From the NCBI GenBank assembly GCA_903823865.1, contig CAIJUJ010000029.1:1-48913 (forward strand): a stretch of 48,913 bases of DNA, read 5' to 3'. The notes under the pieces were generated by a model. It did no database searches. It was not told where the DNA came from and saw only the letters and a list, made by a program, of their open reading frames with translations. A program made the position numbers and the translations under genes. This stretch comes from an uncultured bacterium. GTDB taxonomy: Bacteria; Patescibacteriota; Minisyncoccia; Phycocordibacterales; GWA1-40-21. Positions 5,836 through 43,076 of the stretch are shown piece after piece. How positions within the stretch are numbered: the first letter of the stretch is position 1; each line of letters starts with the position of its first letter.

Positions 5836-5875
5836 GTTTTTGTTTAAGATTAATTTTAACTGCTTTTATTATAAC

Positions 5876-5897
5876 AAAAAACTGCCAAATTGGCAGT
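5876..5897 (-). terminator. Probable intrinsic terminator of the 23S-5S transcript
   Basis: ACTGCCAA/TTGGCAGT hairpin followed by a T-tract on the minus strand. Confidence 0.65.
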
Positions 5898-5909
5898 GTT
5901 TGTAAATTA

Positions 5910-6070
5910 AAAACTTAGTTCGGTATTTACTTTCCCCAACAGAGGGAGTTGGAGTTTGGGTTGGGACCAAAACTTCAAAGACAGACTGAGCGAAGGCGAA
6001 GGAGTCGGGGTCGCGAGATTTTTCAGCAGAAAAATACTCGTGACTCATCGCCTAAACGGTATCAAATTTA
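5910..6070 (-). pseudogene. Degenerate 5S rRNA 3'-half relic interrupted by inserted hairpin DNA
   Basis: Minus strand ACTCCCTCTGTTGGGGAAAGTA matches the intact 5S ACTCTCTCTGAAGGGGAAAGTA. GGCGATGA (6045-6052) matches GCCGATGA, about 100 bp away. Confidence 0.55.
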
Positions 6071-6090
6071 ATTTGGGGTGGGACCCAAAT
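5948..6090 (+). repeat. Two partial copies of the mini-element terminal hairpin
   Basis: GTTTGGG-TTGGGA-CCAAAAC (5954-5973) and ATTTGGG-GTGGGA-CCCAAAT (6071-6090). Confidence 0.65.
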
Positions 6091-6196
6091 TTAATTTCTT
6101 ACATAACAAAAAAATACTCGTGAGAGCGTTTTTAGTATTAAAAACTTAGTTCCGGCGCCTAGCTACTTTCCATTTAAGTTGAGAGTAATTCATCCC

Positions 6197-6292
6197 CTTA
6201 CAGGGGCAGTACACCTTTTGGATATTTTATTTCTTTTCAATCATAAAATATCTCAAAAGGTCTTTCGGTCGGGTCCCAATCCCGACCTCAAC
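6197..6292 (-). mobile_element. 96-bp hairpin mini-element, copy A
   Basis: Aligns by eye with 38169-38264 and 6504-6584: GTTGA, stem with TTGGGA loop, ACCTT...AAGGT stem, TACTG, CTGTAAG. Mobility is inferred. Confidence 0.65.
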
Positions 6293-6334
6293 CTCAACGG
6301 GCTTAAATTTAAAAATAATTTTAATCAAAAACTT

Positions 6335-6449
6335 TGTTCTGGCGACTACCTACTTTCCCCTTCAGAGAGAGTATCATCGGCACTACAAGGCTTAACTTCT
6401 GAGTTCGGAATGAGATCAGGTGTGACCCCTGCGTCAAATCACCAGAACA
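6335..6449 (-). rRNA. rrf: 5S rRNA (intact copy)
   Basis: TCTGGTG...CACCTGATCTCATTCCGAACTCAGAAGTTAAGC...GCCGATGATAC...GAAAGTAGGTAGTCGCCAGA. Flanked by a perfect 16-bp IR (6311-6326/6458-6473). Ends approximate. Confidence 0.95.
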
Positions 6450-6503
6450 AAAACTTCGATTAAAATTATTTTTTGAATGAACTTCTGATTCGGAATGAAT
6501 CAG

Positions 6504-6584
6504 GTGAGATTTGGGCTGGGACCCAAATCGCAAGACCTTGAACATCTTGTTCTCGTGATGTGAAAGGTGTACAGCGTCTGTAAG
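6504..6584 (+). mobile_element. 81-bp hairpin mini-element, copy B
   Basis: ATTTGGG-CTGGGA-CCCAAAT, ACCTT..AAGGT, GTACAG, CTGTAAG. Confidence 0.6.
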
Positions 6585-7003
6585 AAGGAACACCCAAGAC
6601 TTTGCACCAGAACTAAATTTTCAATTTTATCATGTGAAAAATATTCAAAATATTTTTTGAATTAATTTCACATAACAGGTTAAAACAAACGATTTGTGTA
6701 TTTTTAAATTTCCTAATAAGAATCGGATAATTAGTATTGCTCGCCTGAATCGATTACTCGACTTACAGCTGCAACCTATCACCTGGTCATCTCCCAGGGT
6801 CCTCAATTGAATTCTAATCTTGGGGACGGCTTCACTCTTAGATGCTTTCAGAGTTTATCCGTTCCGAACATAGCTACTCTGCGTTGCCCTTGGCAGGAAC
6901 AGCAGATAGACCAGAGGTTCGTTCAACTCGGTCCTCTCGTACTAGAGTCAAATCCCCTCAAAATTCTACGCCTGCAGTAGATAGGAGACCAACCTGTCTC
7001 ACG

Positions 7004-7364
7004 CATGTTATCACTCATTACTAAGTGCATTGGACTATAGCTTCATTAAATCAGTATATGGTATGTAGTATACAGTATACTGTATACAAAATACTTAATA
7101 CTCACTCAACTGTTGGTGTTTAGTCTCTACGGGCATATATAATAAATTATATATTTCCCTCGGTATAATCCACTTTCATGGAGTCCACCGATACTAACCA
7201 ACTTGATCGTAATATTTTTTAAATATTAGACCGCCGTGATTTGATTGTGTCTTCTTTCTATTTATACTCAATAACAAAATTACTCACCTTGTTCATTGAG
7301 TTTGTTTAAACGAAAATTCCTCATGGGATTCAAACTATTAAAAAGATAATTCGTTATCTTCTTA
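7004..7364 (-). ncRNA. Group I intron in 23S (361 nt, no homing endonuclease ORF), inserted after U2593 (E. coli numbering by eye)
   Basis: Interrupts GGGTTCAAACCGT|CGTGAGACAG; ends in G; P7 strands GTAGAGACTA and AAGCTATAGTCC; P3-like AACTCAA/TTGAGT. Confidence 0.85.
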
Positions 7365-8021
7365 ACGGTTTGAACCCAGCTCGCGTATCTTTTTAAATGG
7401 CGAACAGCCATACCCTTGGGAGCTTCTCCACCCCCAGGATAAGATGAGCCGACATCGAGGTGCCGAACTCCGCCGTCGATATGAACTCTTAGGCGGAACT
7501 AGCCTGTTATCCCTAGAGTAGCTTTTGTCAGATAATCCCGGGCCGCGTCTAAAACGGGCCGTCGGTTCACTTTGCTCTGCTTTCGCATCTGCTCGACACT
7601 TACGTCTCGCAGTTAAGCCGGCTTTTGCCAATATGCTATCGGCACGGTTTCCATTCGCGCCTAGCCGACCTTAATAGGCTCCTCCGTTACTTTTTAGGAG
7701 GATAGCGCCCCACTAAAACTACCCACCAGATACTGTTTCTATGAGTTTTTTCCTCAAAGATTAGAATATATATTCAAAAAGAACGGTATTTCACTTGCGG
7801 ATCCATCTTCCCCGAAAGAAAAACTTCAAATCCTCCCGTCTACGCTACGCATCCAAAACATATACTCAATACCAAGTTGCAGTAAAGCTTCTAGGGTCTT
7901 TTCGTCTAACTGCAGGTAACCGGCATCTTCACCGGTATTGCATTTTCACCGAGCTGATCTTCGAGACAGTCCCCCACTCATTACACTATTCAAGCGCGTC
8001 TGAACTTACCAGACAAGGAAC

Positions 8022-8062
<41 letters not shown>

Positions 8063-9409
8063 CAGGGCTTACAGCAATCACCACTACCCTTGCGGATAGC
8101 AACGTCGCTGGTTGACCTTCTGGCATTGGTCAAGTGTCACCTCCTATACATCGTCTTACGACTTCGCAGGAAGCTGTGTTTTTGATAAACAGTTGGCAGA
8201 GGTACTTTTGATGCTACCCATATAAATATGGGCAAGCCTTATTGCTAACTTACGGCTGATATTTTGCCGAGTTCCTTGAAGATCTATCACTCGTTCACCT
8301 TACTCTACTCGAGCTAACCACCTGTGTCGGATTACGGTACGGTCTTTACATATTTAAGTTTAGGGAATTTTCTCGGAAGTTTGCTTTGATAAATTCACCA
8401 CGGCGAACCGTAATGTTTATGCTGCACTTTCGCTCATCATTAAAGAAAGAATTCCGGATTTACCTGGAACTCGCAATTATGCTACAAACGCAAATCCATT
8501 AATGCGCTTATCATACTAATCTTCGTCCTCCCATCACAATATATAAAGGTCATGGAATATTAACCATGTGTCCATCGTGTGCGGCTATCGCCATCCACTT
8601 AGGGCCGACTAACCCTTCGCTGATTGTCATCGCGAAGGAAACCTTGGTTTTTCGGTGTGTGGGGTTCTCACCCACATTGTGGTTACTTGTGCCAACATTC
8701 TTACTTCAACACGCTCCACCATGGGTCACCCCTTTGGCTTCATTGCAGAGTTGAATACTCTCCTACCAATATAAATATCCGAAGATATCTATAGTCCTAA
8801 GTTTCGGTATCATGTTTAACCCCGATTATCTGCGGCGCAAAATCTCTTAGTAAGTGAGCTGTTACGCTATCTTTAAAGGATGGCTGCCTCTAAGCCAACC
8901 TCCTTACTGTCTGAGAAAAATTACCACCTTAAGTGTACTTAACATGAATTTAGGGACCTTAAATTTAGATGCGGGCTGTTTCCCTTTTGACCATGGGGCT
9001 TAGCCTCCACAGTCTAACTGCTGAACAATTTACTTCTCGGTATTCGGAGTTTGATAGGTCCTGCGATATTTCTATCTGTCAGGACCTTCCAGTGCTCTAC
9101 CCCCGGAAGGTACATTCAACGCTAGCCCAAAAGCTATTTCGGAGAGAACCAGCTATTACCAGGCTCGATTAGCTTTTCACTTCTTATCTCAAGTCATCCA
9201 AGACTATTGCACGGGTCACTGGTTCGGACCTCCCCTCTGATTTCTCAAAGGTTCATCCTGCTCAAGATAAGCTCGCTCTGGCTTCGGGTCTGATCTGTAA
9301 AATAAACGCACTATTAATACTCGGTTTCCCTATGGCTCCACCCGGTAAAGGGCTTAGCCTACTTCACAGATCAACTCGTTGGCTCATTCTTCAATAGGCA
9401 CGCCGTGAC

Positions 9410-9550
9410 GGACATCACACTACAAACGATATTTACAAAATAAAAATTAAAAAATATATAGCAAAAATTACCGCATCAAAATGACACTAGTATTTTTGGT
9501 TTTAGAGTTTTTAATTTCAACTTGCAAACATCACATGCAATGTGATGCCC
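9410..9550 (-). other. Expanded 23S helix 25 / intervening sequence (141 nt)
   Basis: Replaces the ~28-nt helix between ACGCCGTGAC and GCTCCGACTC. AT-rich and folds as one long imperfect hairpin. Confidence 0.75.
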
Positions 9551-9608
9551 GCTCCGACTCCTTGTAGGCGCACGGTTTCAGGTCTATTTCACTGCCCTCA
9601 CCGGGCTG

Positions 9609-9645
<37 letters not shown>

Positions 9646-10239
9646 ATCTCTAACAATATTTAGCCTTACCGGTTAGTTCCGGCAGATTCCCTCAAGCTTT
9701 TCGTGTCCTGAGGTACTCAAGAATAATAACGGAAAAGATATTTTATTTTCACTTACGGGACTATTACCCACTAGGGTTCTGCTTCCCAGCAGATTCTGTT
9801 AACAAAATATTTTGTAACTTTTCTCATTTATAAATAAATGACGTCACCATCTTACTACACCGATCATAAACTTTATGTACAAAAATTTTATACACAAAGT
9901 TTATGATCGGTTTGGGCTACTTCCTTTTCGCTCGCCGCTACTAGGGAAATGTTGTTACTTACGTAACATTGTTTTCTGTTCCTCCAGGTACTGAAATGTT
10001 TTACTTCCCTGGGTGTGCATCTTACATCAAGTGCAAGATAACCAACAAAGTTGGTTGAGTTTCCTCATTCGGAAATCTCCGGATCAAAGGTTGCTAAGCA
10101 CCTCCCCGAAGCTTATCGCAGCTTTACTACGTCCTTCATCGCTTATTAGAGTCAAGGCATCCACCATGCGCCCTTAAATTTCCCATTAGGAAATTTAAAA
10201 ACCACAATCTTTAATTAGTTTACATCGTAAACTAATAAA

Positions 10240-10730: not shown

Positions 10731-11327
10731 TTATTCAAGAATTCCATCTAAATTTACATCATACAAAATAGCTTCTTGAATATGCTTATATTTTATTATC
10801 TCATCTTTTTTAAACCACAAATCAATTTCCTTATGAGCTTCATCCACACTTCCAGATGCGTGTATTAAATTTCTAATTGATCTCTCGTCTTGGTCAGACA
10901 TTCTGTATGAATCTAAAACAAAATCACCTCGTATCGTACCGGTATCAGAAGAAAGTGGTTCAGTGCCACCAACAAGTTTTCTAACAATTTGTATTGCGTG
11001 TGCTCCCTGCCAAACCATAGTAATGACTGGCCCGCTTGAAAGGTATTTTTCTAGCCTCAATAAAACCTTATTTCCTATTTCTAGTGGGTCGTCAGATGGT
11101 GGAACAAACCCTTTTGATTTATAATTATCAATAGATTTTTGCCCAGCTTTTCTTACCCACTCAGGGTCAATAGTGTAATGTTTCCTTGCCATCTCCGGAT
11201 TTGGAAGACACATTCTCATTGCAATGAGCTTTAGGCCAATTCTTTCGAATCTTCCTATTATTTCTCCAATAAGTGACCTTTGTACACCGTCTGGTTTTAT
11301 GATGATAAATGTTTTTTCTGTTTTCAT
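10731..11327 (-). CDS. ndk: Nucleoside diphosphate kinase (long form)
   Basis: EKTFIIIKPDGVQRSLIGEII, PGTIRGDF-like TGTIRGDF, and RNLIHASGS with the catalytic His. Confidence 0.95.
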   Translation of the reverse strand: MKTEKTFIIIKPDGVQRSLIGEIIGRFERIGLKLIAMRMCLPNPEMARKHYTIDPEWVRKAGQKSIDNYKSKGFVPPSDDPLEIGNKVLLRLEKYLSSGPVITMVWQGAHAIQIVRKLVGGTEPLSSDTGTIRGDFVLDSYRMSDQDERSIRNLIHASGSVDEAHKEIDLWFKKDEIIKYKHIQEAILYDVNLDGILE

Positions 11328-11350: not shown

Positions 11351-14128
11351 TTATTCAATCTCCGGTTCAGTCTTTTTATACTTTTCTAAAATCTCATTTT
11401 CAACCTCACCCTTATCGCGACCGTACTTAAGATAAGATAATTCTTTAATTTTATCAAGTAGAATTTTATTTCCTCTTGGTGGTAAGTTTGTTTCCATACT
11501 AAATGGCTTTACAGGCTTTCCATTTGCAAGCATTTTTACATACGAACTGTGATTGTCTATATTCATTAAATCTTTTGCCGAAAATACTGGAGTAAATTGT
11601 TTTTCTAAATATTCTGCGTCTTCAGAGCTTACACGAAATACTGACATAGAACCAACGTTACCAAAAACAGAATTCTTTATTTTTTCATCAAGCTGTGCGA
11701 TAAATTGGTGCGCCACAGTAAGCGCAAGTTTATATTTTCTTGCTTCTGATAGTATTGTAGAGATAGAATCAGTTGTGACATTTTGAAATTCATCAACATA
11801 TAAATAGAAAGGTGGAAAATCTTTTCCAAAAGAATCCGTTCTTGAAAGTGCTGCCATTAATAATTTGCCTACAATAATAAGACCGATAAGATTTGAGTTG
11901 ATGTCTCCAAGCCTTCCTTTTGCAAGGTTCACTAGAAGTATTTTTTTATTATCCATAATGTCACGAAAATCAAAAGATGATTTTTCTTGAGAAACAATTG
12001 GACGCATAATTTCATTTGAAAGAAACACGTCAAACTTTGAGGTAATATATGGCACTATATTTGCAAGAGATGCTTCACCTCCAGCTTTTCCAGCAATTTC
12101 TCTCCAGAATTGTAGAACAATTGGGTTTTTACACCTTGAAAGTTTAAGCTCTCGGTATATTTTATCTGATAGAACTCTTGATACATCCAGAAGAGTTGAA
12201 CCAGAATCTGGATCTTCCAGGACAAGATTTACAGCATTTCTAAAATATTGTTCAAACATAGGACCACCCGTTGCTTTCATATCAAAAAGTTTATTGAAAA
12301 TTGAAAGCATTTCATTAACTACAAATGTTTTTTGTTCTGGGAATCTTGTATCAAACTCGAGCATGTTTAATCCCATTGGTCTTTCTGTATAGCTTGGATC
12401 AAAATAAATTACATCATCATATCTTTCTGGAGGAACAAAAGACAGGACTTCCTGAATATCAGAACCGTGTGGGTCTATCATACAAACTCCCTCTCCTGCC
12501 AAAATATCTTGGCGAATCATTGTTTTTAAAAGTGTGGTTTTACCTGTACCGGTTTGACCTATAACATAAAAATGCCTTAGCCTATCTTCCGGTGTTATTT
12601 TTATTGGTGTTTCCACGTTTCTATATTTATTTGTTCCCAAAAGTATTCCTTCTTTGGGTAGATCGAGTGGTGCTGGTGCGCTAATCGCTTCGGTCTTTTT
12701 TAGTTGTGATGCACTATTAAAGTCCGCCTCAGGTAAATGCATGATTGTTGTTAATTCTTTCAAGTTTGTATTCAATACTTTATTTTCATTAAAAATCCTA
12801 AAAGAATAATCTCGGGCTAATTTCAAGAGATTTTTACCTTCAGCCCTTTCAAATTTTATTTTATTACCATTTGTATTTTCAAATTGGTTAAATGAAGACT
12901 CAATATCGGACAAGATAGCAAAAGCTTCTTCACTTGCTGTAGATGAAGCCATAATTCTAATATTTACACTTGCAATTGGACTTGAAATTTTAGCTTTAAT
13001 ATTTTCGATTGGGGTAGTATTAGAAGAGCTGTTGTCTTCTTTCTTATCATCCTTATCTTTTTTTGTTTCTTTTATTATTTCTTTTCCAATCTGCCTCAAA
13101 ATACCAAAGATTGAAGAATCAGCTTTTGCTAACGCCTCTTTAAATTTTGAACCCTTTTCCATTTCTTTTAATACCTTTTTGTAAAAAGACATTTTTGCGG
13201 CAGGGGCAGGTCTAACAATTATTTGTATTGATGCTCCCTCTCCATCTTTATCAACTTTTGAGAAACTGTTTAGTAGTACATTCAATGGGTCATAGTCAAA
13301 TTGGTCATAAGTTTTTATTGGAAAAATATCATTTTTTGAAAACACGGCTAACGAACCTACGTATTCACCATTTTCATTAAAAATATTATAATCATTTTTC
13401 TTTTCTACAAGTTTTACATTTGGAAAAATAGACTGAACTTGTTTTTCAAAAAGTGAGCGTTTCGAATCTGGAATTGATATATAAAAAATTATTTCATCAC
13501 TATGATTAGCTTTTGAAAGTTCGAGCGCAAAATAACCTGAGCCCTTTTTATCATCCTTGTCTACAGAAAACATCCCAGCATAAAATTGCTCCATTTTTGA
13601 TATTAGTTCTTTTAAATTTTTATTTTTCTGAGCCTCATCTTTTATTGCGCCAGGCAAAGATACCTCGAATAGGGTCATCTTCAAAGCTTTAAAAACTGGG
13701 TTTTTTTCATTAGTGTTAGCGAGTCTAAAACCCGCTTTTATGTATTGAACTAAAAATCTATGAAAGTCATCTTCAATATGCGGATTATTTAGTCTGTCAA
13801 TAATCGCTAGAGTATTCAATACTCCTTTTTCTTGTAAAATATCAATAAGTTCGGCCATTTTGGCATCATGCTCTTCTGGTGCCAAGTCAAGAACGATGGC
13901 CTCAACTTCATTCTTTTTCAAAGCATAATCTTTATCTAAAATATCTTCTAGTTTTTTATCGGCATGGGCATGAATTTCATCATGAATGACTTCATCTTGT
14001 ATAACATCTTTGCCATCCTCAGCCATTTGTCTCTCGTGGTTTGAGACTTTTTCACGTAAATATCTCAACTCCTCATCAGGAGTTTTAAATTTTTGTTCTA
14101 TTCTTTGACTACCAAATTGTTCAACCAT
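11351..14128 (-). CDS. VirD4/TraG/HerA-like P-loop ATPase
   Basis: HFYVIGQTGTGKT (Walker A), IDPHG, LYVDEFQ (Walker B), LSEARKY and AHQFIAQL. Confidence 0.8.
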   Translation of the reverse strand: MVEQFGSQRIEQKFKTPDEELRYLREKVSNHERQMAEDGKDVIQDEVIHDEIHAHADKKLEDILDKDYALKKNEVEAIVLDLAPEEHDAKMAELIDILQEKGVLNTLAIIDRLNNPHIEDDFHRFLVQYIKAGFRLANTNEKNPVFKALKMTLFEVSLPGAIKDEAQKNKNLKELISKMEQFYAGMFSVDKDDKKGSGYFALELSKANHSDEIIFYISIPDSKRSLFEKQVQSIFPNVKLVEKKNDYNIFNENGEYVGSLAVFSKNDIFPIKTYDQFDYDPLNVLLNSFSKVDKDGEGASIQIIVRPAPAAKMSFYKKVLKEMEKGSKFKEALAKADSSIFGILRQIGKEIIKETKKDKDDKKEDNSSSNTTPIENIKAKISSPIASVNIRIMASSTASEEAFAILSDIESSFNQFENTNGNKIKFERAEGKNLLKLARDYSFRIFNENKVLNTNLKELTTIMHLPEADFNSASQLKKTEAISAPAPLDLPKEGILLGTNKYRNVETPIKITPEDRLRHFYVIGQTGTGKTTLLKTMIRQDILAGEGVCMIDPHGSDIQEVLSFVPPERYDDVIYFDPSYTERPMGLNMLEFDTRFPEQKTFVVNEMLSIFNKLFDMKATGGPMFEQYFRNAVNLVLEDPDSGSTLLDVSRVLSDKIYRELKLSRCKNPIVLQFWREIAGKAGGEASLANIVPYITSKFDVFLSNEIMRPIVSQEKSSFDFRDIMDNKKILLVNLAKGRLGDINSNLIGLIIVGKLLMAALSRTDSFGKDFPPFYLYVDEFQNVTTDSISTILSEARKYKLALTVAHQFIAQLDEKIKNSVFGNVGSMSVFRVSSEDAEYLEKQFTPVFSAKDLMNIDNHSSYVKMLANGKPVKPFSMETNLPPRGNKILLDKIKELSYLKYGRDKGEVENEILEKYKKTEPEIE

Positions 14129-26121: not shown

Positions 26122-29100
26122 TTAGTTAGACAAGTAGTTTTGATTTGATGTTGAATATGAAGGAATCAAAGACGCATCTAATTGACCTGAATTTCCTTCG
26201 ACATCGTACCATCCTAATGTTGTTGGTGCATCCAATTGTGTTGTAAGAGCATCAGTAGCAACACCAACTGTTACGCTGTCAACACTGCCATATAGTGAGT
26301 AACTATATGTACCTGGAGCTAAATTGTAGTTAGGTACGAATACAACTGATCCTATACCTGTTGCTGTCATTACTGATGATGTCGCTACGACTGTATTACT
26401 GCTGTCTTTAAGGACAAGAGCTGCACCCGTTGTGGTTGCTGTTTTTCCTTGTAGAATAGTAAATCCAATTTTAGACATTTCAACCGTCTTACCAACAACT
26501 GTAATTGATATATCAGCCAATTTAAGTGAAGTGCTTTTTGTCAAACCTGTTCTTGATGCTGAGATCAAAGAAACAAGTGGGTAAGCAGCTACTGGTGACA
26601 TAGCCAATGTTGATTTGTTTGGGTAGAACGTTGTTGTATTATTTCCTGCTTGATATTTAACAGAAGTTAATACTAACTGAACTGGAACTGCAGATGTAAT
26701 ACCTCCAGCTGTTACTCCAACTGTGTTATAAGCAACAGAGACTGGGATATTTGTACCCACATTTGAAACTGGGATTTGAATATTTAGACCAGAAATTGTT
26801 GTTGTAGCACCTGCTGAAACTGGAACTGTGACTCCTCCAACAGAAATTGATGTAATCGCATTTAAGTTTGTAGAGCTTGCCATAAATCCAAGGTCAGTAA
26901 TAACTGATGTACCGATGGTTGATGTAAATGTATATGTTCCAATAACTGAGTTTGCTGATGTTGAACCACCAATAACAAGTTGTGCTGATGTTGGTGTAAC
27001 ACCTGATGCAAGACCTGATGTTGACAATGAACCATTTCCAACTGTCAATACCTGTCCATATATAGGTGTAACCTGTGAAGCGTCAATATTGCTATTAACA
27101 CCTGTAGCTGTAACTGCCAAACTTGTAATAATTCGGTTTGTTGAGCTATGTGTACCGTTTGTAGCTGAAGCTGTAACAACTGGTGTACCAACTACTTTTG
27201 CAACTGCAGTAAGTGTTACTTTTGTAGCATCACTTGTAGCTGTTACTGTGGCAGAAGCGGCTGCGTTTATAGCGGCTGCGAATGCTGTCATTTCAGTTGT
27301 TGTTGCAACTGAAGCGACTTGGTAATTTACTGTCGTTGCGCCGATAACTGCAGTCAAAGTATCACCAACTTCAAGATTTCCTGGAGTCAATGTGGATACC
27401 TGAGATGCTGTATCAACACCACCGGCTAATACTGTTTGTGCAGCAGTTGTATTTGTTCCTCCTGCTGTTGTTGTTATAAGATTACCAACTGTTCCAGCTG
27501 TGTTAGCTGTAAGAGTGATAACTCCTTGGACTGATGAAGCTGCAACAAGAGATTGGGAAGCATTTATTAATGCTGCTAAGTTTGCTGCTGCAGTTGTAGA
27601 AGAAACTATTCCTCCTGCTGTATAAGAAACAAGAACACCGTTAATTGTAGTACTTGCAATTTGTCCAACCGTTAATTGGTTAGAAATTGTAACTGTACCC
27701 GAAGCTTTAGCTCCGGCAGATCCTGCGGTTGTTGTTGCTGAAACTAATGTTTGTGCTGTATCTGAGTTTGCAACTGAAGCAACTGCTCCAATATCTGCAA
27801 ATACATCTACTACGTGTGTACCGTTTGCTGGGATTGTGAAGTTTACTCCAAAGTTGTTTGAACTTTGAGGATTTACAGATGTATTAGCATCTGAAATTTT
27901 CAAATTTGACAAACCTGACAAAGGCAAAGTGCTTGATGATGCAATACCTAACACCAAAGTAGTAATTCTTACTGGCTCTGATGAATTTGAGCTCAAATTA
28001 AACGAACCTATCTTAACACCAGTTGAATTGGCTGTTACAGATGAGTTGTTAAATGAAGCATTTGTAGCAACTGTCAAACCTCCACCAACGATTGTCATTG
28101 TTGGTCCAGCAATTGTAGAAACTACTGTTGGACAACCCTGAATTGTACCTCCCGTTCCAGGGAATGTACACATTTGTGAAGAATATGAACCCTGAGTGTT
28201 ATTTGCATAACCACCCAAAGTTACAATAACTTGAGAAGCAACTGGTGTACTACTACCTATTGAATCTTTCAAATCTCCTTTAACTGTAAGTGTAACTGTT
28301 TGGTTTGCACTTATTACCAAAGAAGAACCTAGGCTAAACAAAGTGCTTGCTGTTGGTAATACATTTTGTGAGCTTGAAATTGCAATACCGTTTGCGTACA
28401 AAGCGACATTTGACAATTTTTGGTTGGCTGAGATGTTAAGATAAGAAATCTTTTCATCCTCACCGTAAGCTTTTAATGTATATTGTGCCAAAGGAACATT
28501 TGTTGAACCGTAAACTATATTTCCAGAACTCAAATTTGAATCCTGAGAGATAGATACGTTACCGACAGTAACAGAAATATTAACTGTGGTTATTGGAAGT
28601 CCTGAAGCCGCTATTCCTACGTTATAGTTTGAATCTATAACAGAAATATCAGCTGCATTCTGAAGTGATAATGAGAATGATCTTGATGAACCATTAACAA
28701 TATCTGCTCTTATCTCAAGAGTTCTTGAGCTGTCTATCTTGTATGGCATTGCAGTAAGATCAAAAGTGATCATACCGTTTGCATCTATACCAGAAGCTTT
28801 AGCTGCTTGAACCCCTGAAATGTATAGGTTCAAATTCTGAAGTGAATTTGATGGGATTGAACCAATAACTTTAACTGCCAAACTCTTTAGCCAAACATAT
28901 CTTGTTATACCAGATAATGTTGCTGACCAAATTGTTTGACTTAATGTCCCTGCTTGAACAGTTGGACTAACTGCTAAGTTTGCAAGACTAAGTGGTGAAA
29001 TATCTCCTGCCGAAGCAACTGTCATAACTGCACCAGATACTGGATATACAGCTGAGACTACTTGGCTTGTTGACCCTAATGTTACACCTAAAAGTGAAAC

Positions 29101-29886
29101 ATTTACTGTCTGGCCTGCTGCTGCTGTAAGAAGAATGTCTGACTTAACAGCGACTGTGACTGAAGAACCTGCTGGGATTGTAAACAATCCTTGTCCAGCA
29201 TTAAATGTTATTTTTCCTGCTGAAACTGTTGCTGAATCTGTCAATCTAACAGCACCTTGGAACAAATAAACATTTGAAAGTGATGTATCTGCTGATACTC
29301 CACCTCTTTGTAATGTTATATTTGTAACGACTGCTGGAACTGCTGATGTGTTTTGGAATGTATATTCCGCAAGATCAGCTGCTGCTTGACCTGCGATGAT
29401 AGCACCTGATACAGGTGAACTTGCAGCCAATGATACTGCAACACTTGAACCTGTTGGGACAACTGTTGTACCTTGTGAAACTGTAGTTCCTGCTGAAGCA
29501 TTTACTACTCCTCTTGTTTTAGCACCAAAGTATCCTGCTGCTGGTGTTATTCCTTTTGACAACTGGAATTGTATCAAAGCTGCTTTTGTAAGCGCTCCGA
29601 AATATCCTGTTGCTGGAGAAATTCCTAGCAAGTTTTGTAATGCTGTAACATCAGCACCTCTTGATCCGACTGTTAAGTCTTTAGCAAAAGTATATCCTGA
29701 TGAAACTGTTACGACTGATGCTGGAGCTATTGAAGCTGTAAGTGATGCGGCTTGTGAAGCATTGATAATCCCTGCGCTCAAAAGCATAGAGATATCACTT
29801 GCTGTCAAAGCTGATGCAACGTTAGCACCCGCCAATGAAAGTACCAATGCGACTGACGCAAAGATACCAATTAATTTTTTACTCAT
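26122..29886 (-). CDS. Large secreted S-layer-like protein with an N-terminal peptidoglycan-binding domain
   Basis: Signal peptide; FAKDLTVGSRGADVTALQ..TGYFGALTKAALIQFQ (PG-binding-1-like); Thr/Ser/Ala/Val/Gly-rich beta repeats. Confidence 0.8.
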   Translation of the reverse strand: MSKKLIGIFASVALVLSLAGANVASALTASDISMLLSAGIINASQAASLTASIAPASVVTVSSGYTFAKDLTVGSRGADVTALQNLLGISPATGYFGALTKAALIQFQLSKGITPAAGYFGAKTRGVVNASAGTTVSQGTTVVPTGSSVAVSLAASSPVSGAIIAGQAAADLAEYTFQNTSAVPAVVTNITLQRGGVSADTSLSNVYLFQGAVRLTDSATVSAGKITFNAGQGLFTIPAGSSVTVAVKSDILLTAAAGQTVNVSLLGVTLGSTSQVVSAVYPVSGAVMTVASAGDISPLSLANLAVSPTVQAGTLSQTIWSATLSGITRYVWLKSLAVKVIGSIPSNSLQNLNLYISGVQAAKASGIDANGMITFDLTAMPYKIDSSRTLEIRADIVNGSSRSFSLSLQNAADISVIDSNYNVGIAASGLPITTVNISVTVGNVSISQDSNLSSGNIVYGSTNVPLAQYTLKAYGEDEKISYLNISANQKLSNVALYANGIAISSSQNVLPTASTLFSLGSSLVISANQTVTLTVKGDLKDSIGSSTPVASQVIVTLGGYANNTQGSYSSQMCTFPGTGGTIQGCPTVVSTIAGPTMTIVGGGLTVATNASFNNSSVTANSTGVKIGSFNLSSNSSEPVRITTLVLGIASSSTLPLSGLSNLKISDANTSVNPQSSNNFGVNFTIPANGTHVVDVFADIGAVASVANSDTAQTLVSATTTAGSAGAKASGTVTISNQLTVGQIASTTINGVLVSYTAGGIVSSTTAAANLAALINASQSLVAASSVQGVITLTANTAGTVGNLITTTAGGTNTTAAQTVLAGGVDTASQVSTLTPGNLEVGDTLTAVIGATTVNYQVASVATTTEMTAFAAAINAAASATVTATSDATKVTLTAVAKVVGTPVVTASATNGTHSSTNRIITSLAVTATGVNSNIDASQVTPIYGQVLTVGNGSLSTSGLASGVTPTSAQLVIGGSTSANSVIGTYTFTSTIGTSVITDLGFMASSTNLNAITSISVGGVTVPVSAGATTTISGLNIQIPVSNVGTNIPVSVAYNTVGVTAGGITSAVPVQLVLTSVKYQAGNNTTTFYPNKSTLAMSPVAAYPLVSLISASRTGLTKSTSLKLADISITVVGKTVEMSKIGFTILQGKTATTTGAALVLKDSSNTVVATSSVMTATGIGSVVFVPNYNLAPGTYSYSLYGSVDSVTVGVATDALTTQLDAPTTLGWYDVEGNSGQLDASLIPSYSTSNQNYLSN

Positions 29887-30792: not shown

Positions 30793-31617
30793 TTATTTGA
30801 TAATAAAATATTTTGACCATCTTCTCTCGCCTTCTTTCTTTAGGACACCTTTTGAAACAAGTGATAGGAGTTCTCTTTGGATTGTTTTTTCGCTACAACC
30901 CTTAATATTCTTAGCAAAATCTTTGATTGTTAGCTTCACACCACTTTTTAACATTGATAGTATTATTTCTTGCCTACTATTTTTGTCCTTTACAGTTTTT
31001 CGTGAGACATCATTATTTGTTAAAGACACGTTTCCATCTATCACTGCTTTGTCCGATTGGCTTTGTCCTTTATTGTTGTCCTTTAGAAAATCATTCTTAG
31101 TAATGTCCAGACCCTGATGGTAATTTGGAAAGACCTGGTCTTGCACAAAATTATAATCTCCATCAAAAAGATTTGGTTCAAAAGCAATCTTTGCTGAAGA
31201 ATAATTTGATGCTGAAGTAATCAAAAAATTAGCTAGTTTTGTTAGTTCTGAAGTGATTATATAATGATTGTTTTTTGATATCATTTTTGTGTGCTCTGCA
31301 ATATCAAAAAGGGTTGATATTTCAGTAATAGCTGACAGTAAATTTTTATGATATGTTTCTTCCCCCCAAATTCTATCGGACATTTCCAAAACGTTACCAA
31401 GCATCTTGTGTGAGATATGTCTCGCTCTTTCTTTCATTGGCTCTTTATCAGACATGTGACTAGTAAGTAGGTATATACCTTTGACGAGCTTTTCTGTCTT
31501 TTGAAATATAAAAAGTCCGTATGAGTCACCATCAAACAATATTCCGATATCGGCTTTAACAATAGGGTTATTTTGACCTTGAGGATTAACTAAATTATTT
31601 TGATTCTTGTTTTCCAT
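30793..31617 (-). CDS. Helical N-terminal domain + C-terminal DeoR-like winged HTH protein
   Basis: RQEIILSML...LTIKDFAKNIKGCSEKTIQREL..LV..GVLKKEGERRW. Start at MENK (31617) preferred over the track start. Confidence 0.7.
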   Translation of the reverse strand: MENKNQNNLVNPQGQNNPIVKADIGILFDGDSYGLFIFQKTEKLVKGIYLLTSHMSDKEPMKERARHISHKMLGNVLEMSDRIWGEETYHKNLLSAITEISTLFDIAEHTKMISKNNHYIITSELTKLANFLITSASNYSSAKIAFEPNLFDGDYNFVQDQVFPNYHQGLDITKNDFLKDNNKGQSQSDKAVIDGNVSLTNNDVSRKTVKDKNSRQEIILSMLKSGVKLTIKDFAKNIKGCSEKTIQRELLSLVSKGVLKKEGERRWSKYFIIK

Positions 31618-32011
31618 AATTAAGTTGATTATTGTCTTTAATAAAACGTCCTTTATTTTATTACTGTCTTTTAAATTTTGTCTTTTAAGATTTATTGGAC
31701 AAATAGTTAAGTTAGATAATGATATTATGTCCATTAGGAAATGTAAAGAGCAAATACACCATTGCAAAACATATTCTATTGCTGTAGCAATAGGTATTGA
31801 AATATACATAAGTATTACTAATTTCTTGCGCGCGTGGCGAAGCAACCTAAGTTTTTATTGAATTTATTTGTGAACTATTTCACTACACCGACAACGGGGC
31901 TATATGATTTATTATTACAAAAAAAATCACAAGAAATAATATTGAAAATTTGATATAATTATCAGAAGTTTTTATGTTGTAAATTAAAAGTTTGAACTAA
32001 ATAAATATTAA

Positions 32012-34315: not shown

Positions 34316-34585
34316 ATGCAATACATATATGTTATACAAAGTGCAAAAGATGGTCAATTGTATACAGGTTGCACCAAAAACATTAAGGAGAGACTAAAAT
34401 TGCATAATGCCAAAAAAATTACATCAACAAAAAAACATGCGCCATATGTACTTATTTATTACGAGGGGTATATTAATAGCAAAGATGCATTTAATAGAGA
34501 AAAATATATGAAAACACAATATGGTAGAAATTATATAAAAAAGGTCCTAAATAATTTTTTTATTAGTAAAAATTTTCTCGGGTAA
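34316..34585 (+). CDS. Stand-alone GIY-YIG nuclease family protein
   Basis: YIYVIQS..YTGCT..RL..HN..T..LIYYE..A..RE..MK. Confidence 0.85.
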   Translation: MQYIYVIQSAKDGQLYTGCTKNIKERLKLHNAKKITSTKKHAPYVLIYYEGYINSKDAFNREKYMKTQYGRNYIKKVLNNFFISKNFLG

Positions 34586-37597: not shown

Positions 37598-38104
37598 TTA
37601 AATTTCTTCTGACACCAATGCGTCAATTGATTTGTCTATTTCTTCAATTGTTGCTGTTTTTTCGGCTTTGACTACTTTGTCTTCTTTAAGATTTGTTTTG
37701 ATTTTTGCATCTTTGTCTGAGAACACGGTAATTTTTGGAGAATACATTGTGTTTTCTCTAACTGTTTTGATAACAATATATCTCAAAATTGAATCATTGT
37801 TTTTCATTGCCAAATCAATATTTCTGACATCCCCTTCTTCGGTAAGCTCAAATTTAATAAAACCAAAATATGCTTTGTCGTAAGTTTTATAGATACCACC
37901 AAAACCTTTCTTGATAGAATATGCCAAAGGTCTTAGCTTTGGAGCTTCTTCTGAGATAATAATGGCCTTTTCTTTGGCCAAATATGCTTTGATTTTCTCT
38001 ACTTCTGCCGGAATATTCTCTTCTGCAACAGAGGAAATAATGTGATATCCGACTTCGTATATCTTTTCTTCGCTATTTTTTGCAACTTTTTCCTTTTTAC
38101 TCAT
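37598..38104 (-). CDS. rpsF: 30S ribosomal protein S6 (extended)
   Basis: YEVGYHI, LRPLAYSI and ILRYIVIK; rpsF-ssb-rpsR order. Confidence 0.9.
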   Translation of the reverse strand: MSKKEKVAKNSEEKIYEVGYHIISSVAEENIPAEVEKIKAYLAKEKAIIISEEAPKLRPLAYSIKKGFGGIYKTYDKAYFGFIKFELTEEGDVRNIDLAMKNNDSILRYIVIKTVRENTMYSPKITVFSDKDAKIKTNLKEDKVVKAEKTATIEEIDKSIDALVSEEI

Positions 38105-38153
38105 GAGCGAAATCCTATCATAATACTGGCCTTATTGCAACAAAACGACGCCT

Positions 38154-38314
38154 GTCGTTCCCGCGAAAGTTGAAATTTGGGTTGGGACCCAAATGAAAAA
38201 CCTTTTCAGAATTTTTGTGAAGGAGACGAAACAAAAAATCGAAAAGGTTTACTGTTCCTGTAAGGCGGGAATCTAGAACTCACAAACATGGATCCCCGTC
38301 TTCACGGGGATTAC
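38154..38314. repeat. Second REP doublet; its first REP is split by the mini-element
   Basis: GTCGTTCCCGCGAAA|insert|GCGGGAATCTAG ... ATGGATCCCCGTCTTCACGGGGATTAC. Confidence 0.75.
38169..38264 (+). mobile_element. 96-bp hairpin mini-element, copy C
   Basis: GTTGAA-ATTTGGG-TTGGGA-CCCAAAT-GAAAA-ACCTTTTC...GAAAAGGT-TTACTG-TTC-CTGTAAG. Confidence 0.7.
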
Positions 38315-41153: not shown

Positions 41154-43076
41154 CTACCTTATAACTTTACCAATACCATCAACATATTCTGGATCGGAAG
41201 TAATCGTTGTTGTCACCGGACTTTTTACCTCACCGATTCTTGCCCCAGAATAAACATCGGTTCCACTGATCGTTGCTTCGTTTAACAAATTTAGTTCCTG
41301 CCCAACTTGAGTAATTGAAGGAGTAATTGCAACCTGAAAAGAAACTGTTCGTGCTGGGGAATTTACGCCTATACCATATTTCATTTCACCTATATTCCAA
41401 TCAACCTCACCCGTTCCTTTGTCATAAGTTATAGTTTCTGAATCTGGGCTAGTGTATCCAGTCCACGTTACGTTTGGGGGTAAAAATGCAGAAACTTTTG
41501 CACCAGTGATATTATTGAATGAATCTGACGCAGTCCATGTAATAGTGTAGGTTGTTTGATTATCAACTTGTGGAGGAAATGGCCCACTATTCTCGAATGG
41601 CCCAACCGTTCTAAATCCACGAGATAACAGTTTTAATCCTGAAGATAATTTGAGTGTTTTTGTATCGGAAAAAAGTAATTCCTGCGTCTTTGATCCGTTG
41701 GCACCAACTACGTTTCCAGTAACACTTATGTCCATTTTTATTGATGAGTTCCCAAAAGGAATAGGTGAACCAATATATGGATATAAAGTACTAAAATCAA
41801 AATGTAAATCTCCCTGGTCTGAGGGATTTACTGTTGAAAAACCTCCCTGTGCTCCTTTATCAAAAATAATAGAGTTATTGGAAGAATTATAAAAACCATT
41901 TACGATACTTACTGATTCTTTATCTAATATTTGACCGCTTAACCCAATTTTTATCACCATGTCATAAACCTGCTCAGTCAAATTATTTTGCCAAGAAATA
42001 TCCGCGGAATTCTTACTACCAACATCAATTGCTGTGCTATCACCTGCTTGTTGATTAATTGTCATGACAAGCCCTATAGAAGATTTTTTTAATGATATTG
42101 TCGAAACATAAGTTGCAAGTGGTGTTGTTACAGCTGTATTGTCATTATTATTTGCAATACCAACAGTAAATTTAATCACTCTTTGCTCACCATCTTGCCC
42201 AACAATAGCACCTGATATTCTTATTGTTCTTTTCGCACCGGGTGCCAAATCTCCGATCGCAAAAACACTGCCGTCAGAACTTATAGATTTTGGATTGGAT
42301 GATGACAAATTAAACCCAAAAGGATATTCTGCTTTTAATATTAAGTTTTTTACTATACTCGTGGAATTTGAACTTATATCAATTGAAAAATCTGTAAGCT
42401 GGTTTGAATTGATATCCGTCGGCCCACTAACGCTTACGTTCACAGGGGAAGATGAGATTAAAACGTTAAAATCTTTTTCTTTACTAAAAACTGCATTTGA
42501 GCCAGTCGTTCTGTATTCAACTGTAATTTTTACAACTTGTTGAGAATTTTCTTCACCAAACAATACTGATTTTACTAATCTTTTTTGGCTTTTACCTATA
42601 TTTATATCACCGAGCAACTCACTATATCTTGGATAGTCCTGAGATTGATCAACCGAACTTTTTGTACCAACAGGATACTCAACCTTTAAAGCCACGTTGT
42701 TCAAATTTACATTGTTGTTATTTATAATCTGAATATCTAAAGGTAGTTCTTCACCGCCAGCAATAGAAACCGGCCCACTTACTAAAATGTCAATATTATT
42801 TCCGGAGACAATATTGCTTCCTAAAAAAAACTTTGAGAAAGTAAAACCTAGAGCTAATACAAAAAATATAAAAGCTCCTAAAAGGATTTTTGAGTAAGGT
42901 AATTGGAAATGACTTTCAACTTCTTCGTCTTTAATATCCCATGAAGTTGGTGTATTTGTATTTTGCCCTTCTTGTAAATTATGTCTTCTTTTTATAAAAA
43001 TATTATCAATAGTCTTTGAGTATAGAGACTCCTCTACTTTTTCTATTTTATCTTTTTTCTCATTTTGATCAAACAT
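41154..43076 (-). CDS. Membrane-anchored multi-Ig-fold hypothetical protein
   Basis: Single TM near the N-terminus, then beta-sandwich-like repeats (GPFPPQV..TTYTITW). Confidence 0.75.
   Translation of the reverse strand: MFDQNEKKDKIEKVEESLYSKTIDNIFIKRRHNLQEGQNTNTPTSWDIKDEEVESHFQLPYSKILLGAFIFFVLALGFTFSKFFLGSNIVSGNNIDILVSGPVSIAGGEELPLDIQIINNNNVNLNNVALKVEYPVGTKSSVDQSQDYPRYSELLGDINIGKSQKRLVKSVLFGEENSQQVVKITVEYRTTGSNAVFSKEKDFNVLISSSPVNVSVSGPTDINSNQLTDFSIDISSNSTSIVKNLILKAEYPFGFNLSSSNPKSISSDGSVFAIGDLAPGAKRTIRISGAIVGQDGEQRVIKFTVGIANNNDNTAVTTPLATYVSTISLKKSSIGLVMTINQQAGDSTAIDVGSKNSADISWQNNLTEQVYDMVIKIGLSGQILDKESVSIVNGFYNSSNNSIIFDKGAQGGFSTVNPSDQGDLHFDFSTLYPYIGSPIPFGNSSIKMDISVTGNVVGANGSKTQELLFSDTKTLKLSSGLKLLSRGFRTVGPFENSGPFPPQVDNQTTYTITWTASDSFNNITGAKVSAFLPPNVTWTGYTSPDSETITYDKGTGEVDWNIGEMKYGIGVNSPARTVSFQVAITPSITQVGQELNLLNEATISGTDVYSGARIGEVKSPVTTTITSDPEYVDGIGKVIR

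Follow-up and report, generated by a model that had tools for sequence, protein, structure and literature searches.

Palindrome-associated transposable elements (PATEs), which are IS200/IS605-type miniatures, carry similar imperfect palindromes near both ends that are bound by the same transposase, take their TTAC from the target and produce no target duplication; to our knowledge, IS200/IS605 never makes long duplications of a target gene. ERIC (enterobacterial repetitive intergenic consensus) sequences, the Correia/NEMIS elements of Neisseria, the Rickettsia palindromic elements (RPE) and BOX/RUP have conserved terminal inverted repeats and short target duplications. Elements with tyrosine integrases that target tRNA and tmRNA genes are said to have been the subject of a sublocation analysis by Williams in 2002, and their attL and attR sites reportedly duplicate the 3' end of the tRNA. 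In Halococcus, the single functional 5S rRNA carries a 108-nt insertion that forms part of the ribosome. The genomes of Patescibacteria are tiny, usually contain a single rRNA operon and have few mobile elements that have been recognised. Here we report that a 48,913-nt stretch of DNA from an uncultured member of this phylum (assembly GCA_903823865.1, contig CAIJUJ010000029.1, positions 1 to 48,913; hereafter the window) holds several copies of an apparently undescribed element, about 80–100 bases long, strongly folded, gene-less and common in Patescibacteria (the candidate phyla radiation, CPR). The explanation we favour, to which we give about an even chance of being correct, is that of a small protein-less selfish element, defined by its structure, which spreads into stable-RNA genes together with a duplicated segment of the target.

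The core of the element is a three- or four-way junction in which a P2 hairpin, the linker RAAG, a P3 arm, the linker G(U/G)AC-N-G and a P4 hairpin follow one another in this order, closed by a helix of locus-specific sequence. The P2 loop often contains GGA, the P3 arm is modular and the P4 tip is conserved as C-U-GUA-A-G. A first-pass annotation of the window had read much the same layout from three copies (GTTGA, P2, a linker, an ACCTT..AAGGT stem, GUACNG and CUGUAAG) and had claimed that the stems covary; three copies alone cannot show covariation, but across the family the claim is borne out. When 123 copies were freely aligned with MAFFT, the three variable pairs of P4 showed 71, 44 and 36 double changes, with only 1–3 broken pairs. 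In 74 model-aligned hits, which include copies not matching the search pattern described below, 98.3% of the cells of both helices were paired vs. 75.7% in shuffles, compensatory changes were found at 10 of 10 pairs, and the covariation score was 0.564 vs. 0.121, with none of 500 shuffles reaching 0.564; in slid controls, pairing dropped to 28–59%. At the base of P3, ACCUU/AAGGU is replaced by CCCGAUUG/CAAUCGGG, ACUCAUUG/CAAUGAGU, AGGUUG/CAACCU and others, while at the P4 tip U..A changes to G..C and C-G to G-C or A-U, and tip variants such as GGUAC, GUUAA and G-UGUAA-C occur. Since the P4 tip covaries, CUGUAAG is the tip of a hairpin and not a boundary. Further, the sense strand folded better than the antisense strand in 98 of 126 copies (p = 4e-11) and had more G-U pairs (91 vs. 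54), which indicates that the folded form is one particular strand. Structure in this family is kept more than sequence and is strand-specific, and the core represents a well-supported new structured motif, exemplified by more than 150 copies.

To define the spread of the family, one genome per species was scanned with the 21-base pattern ACCTT-N15-45-AAGGTNTACNGNNNCTGTAAG, and at least 119 genome loci matched, compared with about 8 that we estimate would be expected by chance. Every named record among the listed matches belongs to the Patescibacteria; most are labelled Paceibacterota or Parcubacteria, and Kaiser-, Nomura-, Zambryski-, Taylor- and Lloydbacteria are represented among others. 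The loci were examined as 8-kb pieces. A covariance-model search for further copies, as the first-pass annotation had suggested, found 151 copies in the 119 loci with a model (R1) built from 123 relatives; about two dozen of these break the search pattern, and copy number ranges from 0 to at least 6 per 8 kb. Comparison with Rfam 15 gave no match to the element. At the gathering threshold, only 5S, 23S and tRNAs were reached in the window and 16 loci, and relaxed scans (E up to 10) of positions 5850–6720 and of the full-length unit in locus L002 returned nothing better than E 0.77. A full-text literature search found no description of the element; a meeting report mentions CPR rRNA introns only. 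The strand-specific, widespread structure and the lack of an Rfam 15 match support one of the two identities proposed in the first-pass annotation, an undescribed structured RNA or single-stranded DNA.

It is hardly credible, given these data, that there is no element at all and that the repeats are debris of tandem duplication and deletion in rRNA and tRNA spacers, or native terminators and processing stems. The rRNA region of the window does contain 5S fragments of several generations and abundant terminator-like hairpins, but at least 119 species share this core of 80–100 nt, with compensatory changes and at unrelated loci that include spacers between protein genes (copy C of the window, L121, L049), and debris would not covary. 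A phage or provirus origin was likewise rejected: viral contigs in IMG/VR show chance matches only, all 21 matches to a 16-base motif falling in coding-like sequence that lacks both stems. Family-wide covariation and distribution together exclude debris, processing stems and phage origin.

In the window, R1 (both strands, filters off) found exactly the three full copies that had been reported, A (82.2 bits), C (66.6 bits) and B (51.9 bits), with everything else at or below 15 bits and no copy inside the 23S gene. The hairpin motif GGGNTGGGACCC, allowing one mismatch, has six matches where 0.08 are expected; five are the three full copies and two further hairpins of the earlier account, all at the places given there, and the sixth, within an aminoacyl-tRNA synthetase gene, is a chance match. 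The 3' motif AAGGTNTACNGNNNCTGTAAG occurs only at A, B and C. The places of the copies had been given correctly, but A and C extend beyond the limits then drawn, into their closing helices. Copies A and B and the two hairpins lie at the 3' end of a minus-strand rRNA unit. Copy A (6194–6292, minus; type I) is on the strand of the rRNA operon, within its 3' trailer, and consists of GTTGAGG, P2 (6267–6287), GAAAG, a P3 of the long type (6213–6261), GUACUG and P4 (6194–6212, CCCC-UGUAA-GGGG); with the closing helix included, its fold has a z-score of −5.5. Copy B (6503–6587, plus), also of type I, is antisense to the operon and has P2 at 6508–6529, a short P3 at 6535–6568 and a weakened P4 with three of four pairs. 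Copy C (38158–38271, plus; fold z-score −3.3) lies between an M16 peptidase gene and rpsF, on the strand opposite to both; its closing helix, TTCCCGC/GCGGGAA, is its own (arms 38158–38164 and 38265–38271), P2 and P3 occupy 38175–38194 and 38200–38248, and P4 is partly degenerate. A promoter-like sequence, TTTACT-17-CATAAT, at 38096–38124 (plus), about 40 nt upstream of C and on its strand, is probably coincidental, because the same sequence is present in relatives that lack C and overlaps the start region of rpsF.

The hairpins at 5954 and 6071 had been taken as partial copies of the same unit. They are P2-type hairpins, joined instead to a different conserved module, which we call type II: GCCGGA, a hairpin and GAGGCGGGGUCGCGAG-loop-CUCGUGAC; the examples inspected contain a G-U pair. 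The first (D, 5952–6044, plus; fold z-score −4.2) is antisense to the rRNA operon and combines an extended P2 hairpin (5952–5976) with a type-II module (5981–6044, ...GGAGTCGGGGTCGCGAG-loop-CTCGTGAC), and the second (E, 6064–6124, plus) combines a P2-type hairpin (6064–6097) with a decayed type-II remnant (AAAAAAATACTCGTGAG, 6108–6124); L149 and L166 hold the orthologous E hairpin. The module as in D was also found in L002, L006, L021, L040, L082, L100 and L155, and type II has no Rfam match. Many type-I copies proved to be a domain within a larger unit, in which a long terminal helix encloses, in order, GCCGGA, hairpin Pa, GAGGCGG, the type-I domain and hairpin Pz (GGUCGCGAG...CUCGUGAC), Pz carrying a G-U pair in the examples inspected. 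In L049 and L090, the terminal helix is 25–31 bp long, and its sequence differs at each locus. Type II is this larger unit minus the type-I domain, and it occurs alone, with a type-I domain inserted, or inside shells derived from tRNA or 5S. A third module (...CGGCGGAA...GAGCCGGUGCCCAGA...GUCGAGGGAGAAA) was noted downstream of tRNA-Ser/Tyr in L014, L054 and L100. Type II and the third module occupy the same kind of tRNA-derived shell as type I.

Copies of the element are closely associated with tRNA genes. Among pattern-matching copies, 43 lie within 200 nt downstream of a same-strand tRNA and 12 just upstream of one, and none has an immediately adjacent tRNA on the opposite strand. In downstream copies, the tRNA is followed by a terminator-like palindrome and then by the reverse complement of the acceptor 3' strand, P2 and a reverse complement spanning the T-loop and the 3' strand of the T stem. 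GAAG, P3, GUACNG, the P4 5' strand and UGUAA come next, and the series ends with a direct repeat of the tRNA that begins at G52/53 and runs to the tRNA 3' end. The 3' strand of P4 in these copies is the GGTTC of the tRNA or a covarying derivative of it. An intact tRNA stands upstream, with the displaced fragment beyond the element, and the flanking repeats measure 20–45 nt; the direct repeat takes in the terminator in L114 and the next tandem unit in L112 and begins in the variable loop in L004, while a 5' tRNA fragment stands in front of the element in L065 and L060. When compared with mismatched tRNAs, the direct repeat lay above the 95th percentile in 25 of 39 cases with an upstream tRNA, and the antisense arm in 33 of 39. 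The 25 cases resemble integrative elements of tRNA genes in that a direct repeat of the tRNA 3' end bounds the insert, with an intact tRNA at one end; the inserts, of about 100–250 nt, contain no open reading frame (ORF), and no integrase gene lies on the element. The 5' arms are true antisense: at a G-U pair in the T stem or an asymmetric loop, it is the 3' strand that they follow (GAGGG in L037, GCTCGAA in L010).

Several other identities for these tRNA-linked copies were considered and rejected. They are not native extended terminators, as only 10 of 99 tRNAs without a pattern match have a downstream antisense copy and, of 14 such loci inspected, most carry divergent or other-type modules. 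Neither are they tmRNAs or intron-bearing tRNAs: ARAGORN gives only the normal neighbouring tRNAs, P2 does not end in an anticodon loop, and the 5' strands correspond to the antisense of the 3' strand and not to tRNA 5' halves. The antisense arm is no primer-binding site, because it pairs with the genome-encoded trailer and has no TGG complementary to a 3'-terminal CCA, and UGUAA is no T-loop, its first and last bases covarying from U..A to G..C.

No protein gene is linked to the element at the loci examined. Transposase, integrase, reverse transcriptase, Y1 and RAYT (REP-associated tyrosine transposase; REP, repetitive extragenic palindromic) genes were absent from the 39 ORFs of the window, and when 1,245 ORFs within 2.5 kb of copies were clustered, no family occurred in more than 5 of the 119 loci. 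This bears directly on a non-autonomous RNA-guided homing element. Much as IS110 bridge RNAs do, or the guide RNAs used for homing by CRISPR-associated transposons, the 5' arms of such an element would bring a recombinase or nuclease encoded elsewhere to a 5S or tRNA gene, and changed arms would lead it to another tRNA. The arms are antisense of the flank and not copies of the tRNA 5' strand (L037, L010), are specific to the neighbouring tRNA and are split by conserved hairpins; the same core subtypes carry shells for many tRNAs, and position shifts within one tRNA cluster. There is, however, no candidate protein near any locus or in the window, the target copy in cis would compete with the target in trans, the subfamily of copy C keeps a fixed closing helix at three unrelated loci, and no likeness to the bridge or guide RNA families in Rfam was seen. 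Cumulatively, we consider such a homing element quite improbable. A programmable, RNA-structured homing unit, with antisense 5' arms as guides to the 3' part of a stable RNA on a scaffold of P2, P3, G(U/G)AC and the GUA-tipped P4, is also unlikely, though conceivable enough to be spelled out. It would target tRNAs from G53 to the 3' end or defined points of 5S, would bring a second copy of its target along on insertion, sparing the cell the loss of an essential single-copy RNA gene, would be moved by a trans-acting enzyme or by host recombination alone, and would be retargeted between tRNAs by rewriting its arms. Such a unit would represent a hitherto undescribed kind of gene-less mobile element.

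The 5S gene is the second kind of site, and here the window can be compared with a close relative, L149, in which a neighbouring protein is 97% and the 23S-5S spacer 95% identical. In L149 this spacer passes directly into the 5S gene, with no B, whereas in the window 5S pieces of the L149 type are interleaved with other material. Following the rRNA strand, the order is 5S 1–10 (6613–6604), reversed B, 27–55 (6506–6480), a complete 5S (6448–6327), 60–69 (6301–6292), A, 91–125 (6171–6137), reversed E and D, and a 5S remnant (5937–5906). The first piece, an old L149-type 5' end (GTTCTGGTGC..., 6600–6613, minus; 10/10 to L149 5S 1–10), lies on the other side of B from the fragment 27–55 and follows the same spacer sequence that precedes the 5S in L149. 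Fragment 27–55 (6480–6506, minus) abuts B and is 93% identical to 5S over 29 nt; B sits at position 26/27 of an old 5S copy. Between the pieces of the older gene stands an intact 5S gene of a different sequence type (6327–6448, minus; Rfam 5S hit at 6337–6446, 75.8 bits). The left arm of the A closing helix (AAGCCCGTTGAG, 6293–6304, minus) corresponds to L149-type 5S positions ~56–69, CCCGTTGAGG within it matching L149 5S 60–69, and pairs in the fold with CTCTCAAC at 6178–6185; this right arm lies in a displaced 5S 3' fragment that follows A (GATGAATTACTCTCAAC...GGAAAGTAGCTAGGCGCCGGAACTAAGTTTTTAAT, 6137–6196, minus), so that the closing helix (GTTGAG / CTCAAC) is built from 5S-derived flanks. 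A further piece resembling 5S 61–75 is found at 6045–6059, the remnant at 5906–5937 (minus, GGGGAAAGTAAATACCGAACTAAGTTTTTAAT) is the oldest 5S 3' end, and an intrinsic terminator at 5876–5897 (minus) ends the rRNA transcription unit, with every module at 5906–6304 upstream of it. While 6171–6137 is identical at 35 of 35 positions to the 3' end of the live L149 5S, the window's own 5S is only 88.5% identical to that gene. From these alignments, it seems that the 5S gene of the window was replaced by an incoming copy.

The 5S association is not peculiar to the window. When metagenomes were scanned with the 3' end of the L149-type 5S, 22 loci were obtained. Nine have 5S, terminator and next gene with no element, and in seven a second copy of the 5S 3' end follows about 245 nt downstream, separated from the first by modules; none of the 22 showed a plain tandem 5S that lacked a module. 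Insertion at 5S position 26/27 by a reversed type-I element, as for B, recurs in L152, L171 and L172, and insertion at ~70/80 by a reversed type II characterises the L155 group. At every such 5S locus, a second 5S copy or fragment accompanies the element, the repeats being 30–100 nt long. The interrupted 5S has an intact 5S alongside in the window and L172, several interrupted copies are fragments, and in L152 no intact 5S lies within the 5.9 kb examined. In L152 alone, a gene for a T5orf172/MUG113 nuclease of the GIY-YIG superfamily (1548–2306) adjoins the 5S interrupted by the reversed type-I element. In L163, positions 1–110 hold the 5S 3' end as a perfect inverted repeat with the terminator loop at its centre, and a complete reversed 5S and 23S follow; this is either a pair of convergent rRNA units or an assembly fold-back artefact.

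The positions of the element turn over between relatives. As the proposed empty-site check brought out, site C is empty in L125–L127, whose S6 is 85% identical and whose spacer measures 51 nt vs. 237 nt in the window, and B is absent from L149. The C subfamily, which brings its own helix (TTCCCGC...GGGAA), was also found in L013 and L121, at unrelated loci, and only L121 has a copy between rpsR and efp. Orthologous A copies in the window, L149 and L166 have identical P2 and P4 and shared flanks but different P3 interiors. L078 contains a nested or recombinant copy in which a resident P4 is followed by an inserted P2-P3 unit that has a 19-nt duplication on either side, and arrays occur in L061 (four units), L052, L112 and L004. 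Within a single tRNA cluster (Val-GAC, Ser-CGA, Glu-TTC), the element follows Val, Glu or Ser in different genomes, and B, C and E of the window are decayed copies.

These data also speak to the other identity put forward in the first-pass annotation, an IS200/IS605-type miniature of the PATE or REP kind, which a Y1 HUH transposase would move in the form of single-stranded DNA and which would insert 3' of TTAC and end in TCAA. The opposite strand of most copies does begin with C-TTAC-AG and end with a hairpin and TCAA(C), the element is strongly hairpinned, and the 5S gene hit by B has GTTACAC near the junction. Against this, TTACA is the loop of P4, both flanks of which covary, and some variants lack TTAC; the annotation's own caveat, that TTAC might belong to the element, was correct. 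TTAC is absent from the corresponding junction point in intact, empty tRNA sites, GTTGA/TCAA is part of the closing or P2 helix, and the supposed subterminal hairpins (P2 vs. P4/P3) are unrelated, sharing neither sequence nor shape. Insertions are accompanied by target duplications of 20–100 nt, and the TnpA (Y1) or RAYT genes with matching ends that this origin calls for were found neither among the window ORFs nor near the 119 loci, where nothing within 2.5 kb is recurrent. We regard an IS200/IS605 origin as very improbable.

Other known elements and RNAs fitted no better. A miniature inverted-repeat transposable element was rejected because the closing helices differ per copy (tRNA-derived, 5S-derived or unique 25–31-bp arms) and no short duplication was seen. 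The folded strand of an integron attC site reads 5'-RYYYAAC ... GTTRRRY-3' and has IntI nearby; in our element, the polarity is reversed (5'-GTTGAGG ... CCTCAAC-3'), the resemblance is confined to the 5S-linked subfamily and there is no integrase. A group I or II intron remnant is contradicted by the lack of an Rfam intron match and by the location of most copies outside genes or in duplicated fragments. For hammerhead, hatchet, pistol, twister, hepatitis delta virus (HDV) ribozyme, group II domain V, signal recognition particle (SRP) Alu, RNase P and 6S, compared by their consensus sequences, no motif match was apparent, in agreement with Rfam.

A real possibility, if a rather unlikely one, is that the core is a domain of a genuine cellular non-coding RNA family, either a tRNA-like four-way junction or an RNA for which a tRNA mini-helix serves as 'scaffold'. 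Cleavage at the closing helix by RNase P/Z or RNase III would free it from tRNA or rRNA read-through, the RNA would serve the host in regulation, in protein sequestration via the GGA loops or in RNA stability, and its gene copies would duplicate and decay like those of any multigene family. Strong covariation and the sense-strand bias are in keeping with this, as is the co-orientation of every tRNA-adjacent copy with its tRNA; stand-alone copies in L049, L090 and L007 have terminal helices of 25–31 bp followed by T-runs, like independent RNA genes; the order P1-P2-P3-linker-P4 mirrors the cloverleaf, and the shell of tRNA-linked copies reproduces the acceptor and T stems of the neighbour. Yet positions are not conserved among close relatives, decay or an antisense orientation relative to the local transcription unit is seen in many copies (B, C, D/E; the L155 and L172 types), copy number varies from none to six or more per 8 kb, nine genomes with the same 5S type have no element at that locus, and a host RNA has no need of wrapping in copies of an adjacent tRNA.

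Based on the positional instability in near-identical genomes, the arrays, nesting, module swapping and decayed or antisense copies, and the constant coupling to partial duplications that leave the host gene intact, we favour a selfish element. Such an element would reside in and spread into stable-RNA genes (tRNAs and 5S rRNA), its core followed immediately by a copy of the target gene's 3' part and preceded by the reverse complement of that copy, the two forming the closing helix; as the intact target gene is kept upstream, the cell would keep the gene. Spread would most likely be by recombination, with the duplicated stable-RNA segment as portable homology, through Campbell-type integration or loop-out, unequal crossing-over or gene conversion between copies, while palindrome-correcting template switching would maintain the complementarity of the arms. 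Selection would act on the folded single strand, probably RNA from read-through of tRNA or rRNA promoters, although single-stranded DNA might also be the active form. Recombination via the duplicated segment would explain the direct repeats, the arrays and the 5S replacement in the window, and the antisense arms may stem from template switching under selection for a closing helix, or may be guides.

Several points weigh against a selfish element spread in this way. The recombination route is one that we infer, and a mobilising enzyme or an intermediate (a circle, an empty-site read) was not seen. Homologous recombination alone leaves unexplained why the 5' arms are exactly antisense to the 3' flank and split by P2/P3. 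A cellular function could likewise account for the conservation of the core over a very wide phylogeny, the invariant G-U pair of the type-II hairpin and the strict sharing of strand with adjacent tRNAs, and the presence of both orientations at 5S genes argues against a life cycle purely at the RNA level. Finally, the alignment of the 74 hits was fitted to the model structure and leans towards it, free MAFFT alignment agreeing for P4 only. A selfish element and a functional RNA family are the two readings that remain, and they are not exclusive.

Beyond the rRNA region, the window is ordinary chromosome, with a ribosomal-protein operon, secY, adk, ftsK, recA, efp, rpsF-ssb-rpsR and others; ARAGORN found no tRNA genes in it, and the nearest named relatives of its S6 are Candidatus Paceibacterota. 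The 23S rRNA gene (6710–10190, minus; Rfam gathering scan) spans 3,481 nt vs. a model of 2,925 positions, which implies about 550 nt of insertions, and it has no linked 16S gene, a nucleoside diphosphate kinase (NDK) gene lying upstream (10731–11327). A small stand-alone GIY-YIG domain protein of 89 aa is encoded between ftsK and recA (34316–34585, plus). Three ORFs, at 26122–29886 (minus, 1,254 aa), 41154–43076 (minus, 640 aa) and 30793–31845 (minus, 350 aa), have no Pfam match, and a fourth (11351–14128, 925 aa) weakly matches HerA/TrwB-like ATPase domains.

If our explanation holds, a gene-less element that keeps an intact copy of its target and is present in more than 100 species would be a chief driver of rearrangement at stable-RNA loci in Patescibacteria. 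Such rearrangement would confound rRNA and tRNA annotation and assembly; in protein look-ups, many contigs with the gene adjoining this rRNA operon were short. The core is suited to a covariance-model family and, should the antisense arms prove to be guides, the element would represent a new type of sequence-programmed insertion system.

Considering the known systems, the element resembles IS200/IS605 PATEs and REP/BIME (bacterial interspersed mosaic element) repeats in being a short, gene-less, hairpin-rich and strand-specific intergenic repeat with TTAC near one end and TCAA near the other, but differs from them in its unrelated end hairpins, the position of TTAC in a covarying loop, locus-specific closing helices, long target duplications, stable-RNA targets and the lack of any Y1 or RAYT gene found. 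With the tRNA elements of tyrosine integrases it shares the succession of intact tRNA, element and displaced repeat, which starts in the T-loop or variable loop and extends to the 3' end, the piling of successive units into arrays, and the same logic at 5S; unlike them, it is an insert of only about 100–250 nt without genes, with an antisense copy of the repeat, a folded core abutting the repeat and 5S as a target. ERIC, Correia/NEMIS, RPE and pneumococcal BOX/RUP are similarly non-coding repeats of about 100–150 nt whose transcripts fold into long stem-loops; they are distributed patchily among strains and may occur within genes, for RPE also within RNA genes, whereas in our element the termini vary, the interior is conserved through covariation and partial copies of the host RNA gene form the stem. 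As in YrlA Y RNA and the tRNA-like domain of tmRNA, a long terminal helix surrounds a multi-branched module, and the shell of tRNA-linked copies repeats the acceptor and T stems; in contrast to both, there is no T-loop consensus, the P4 tip being a GUA triloop closed by a covarying pair, there is no linkage to rsr or smpB, and copies are multiple and positionally unstable. A parallel at 5S is Halococcus, in which a foreign segment of about 100 nt likewise lies inside the gene, but the interrupted copies described here are accompanied by an intact 5S in the window and in L172, and several are fragments.

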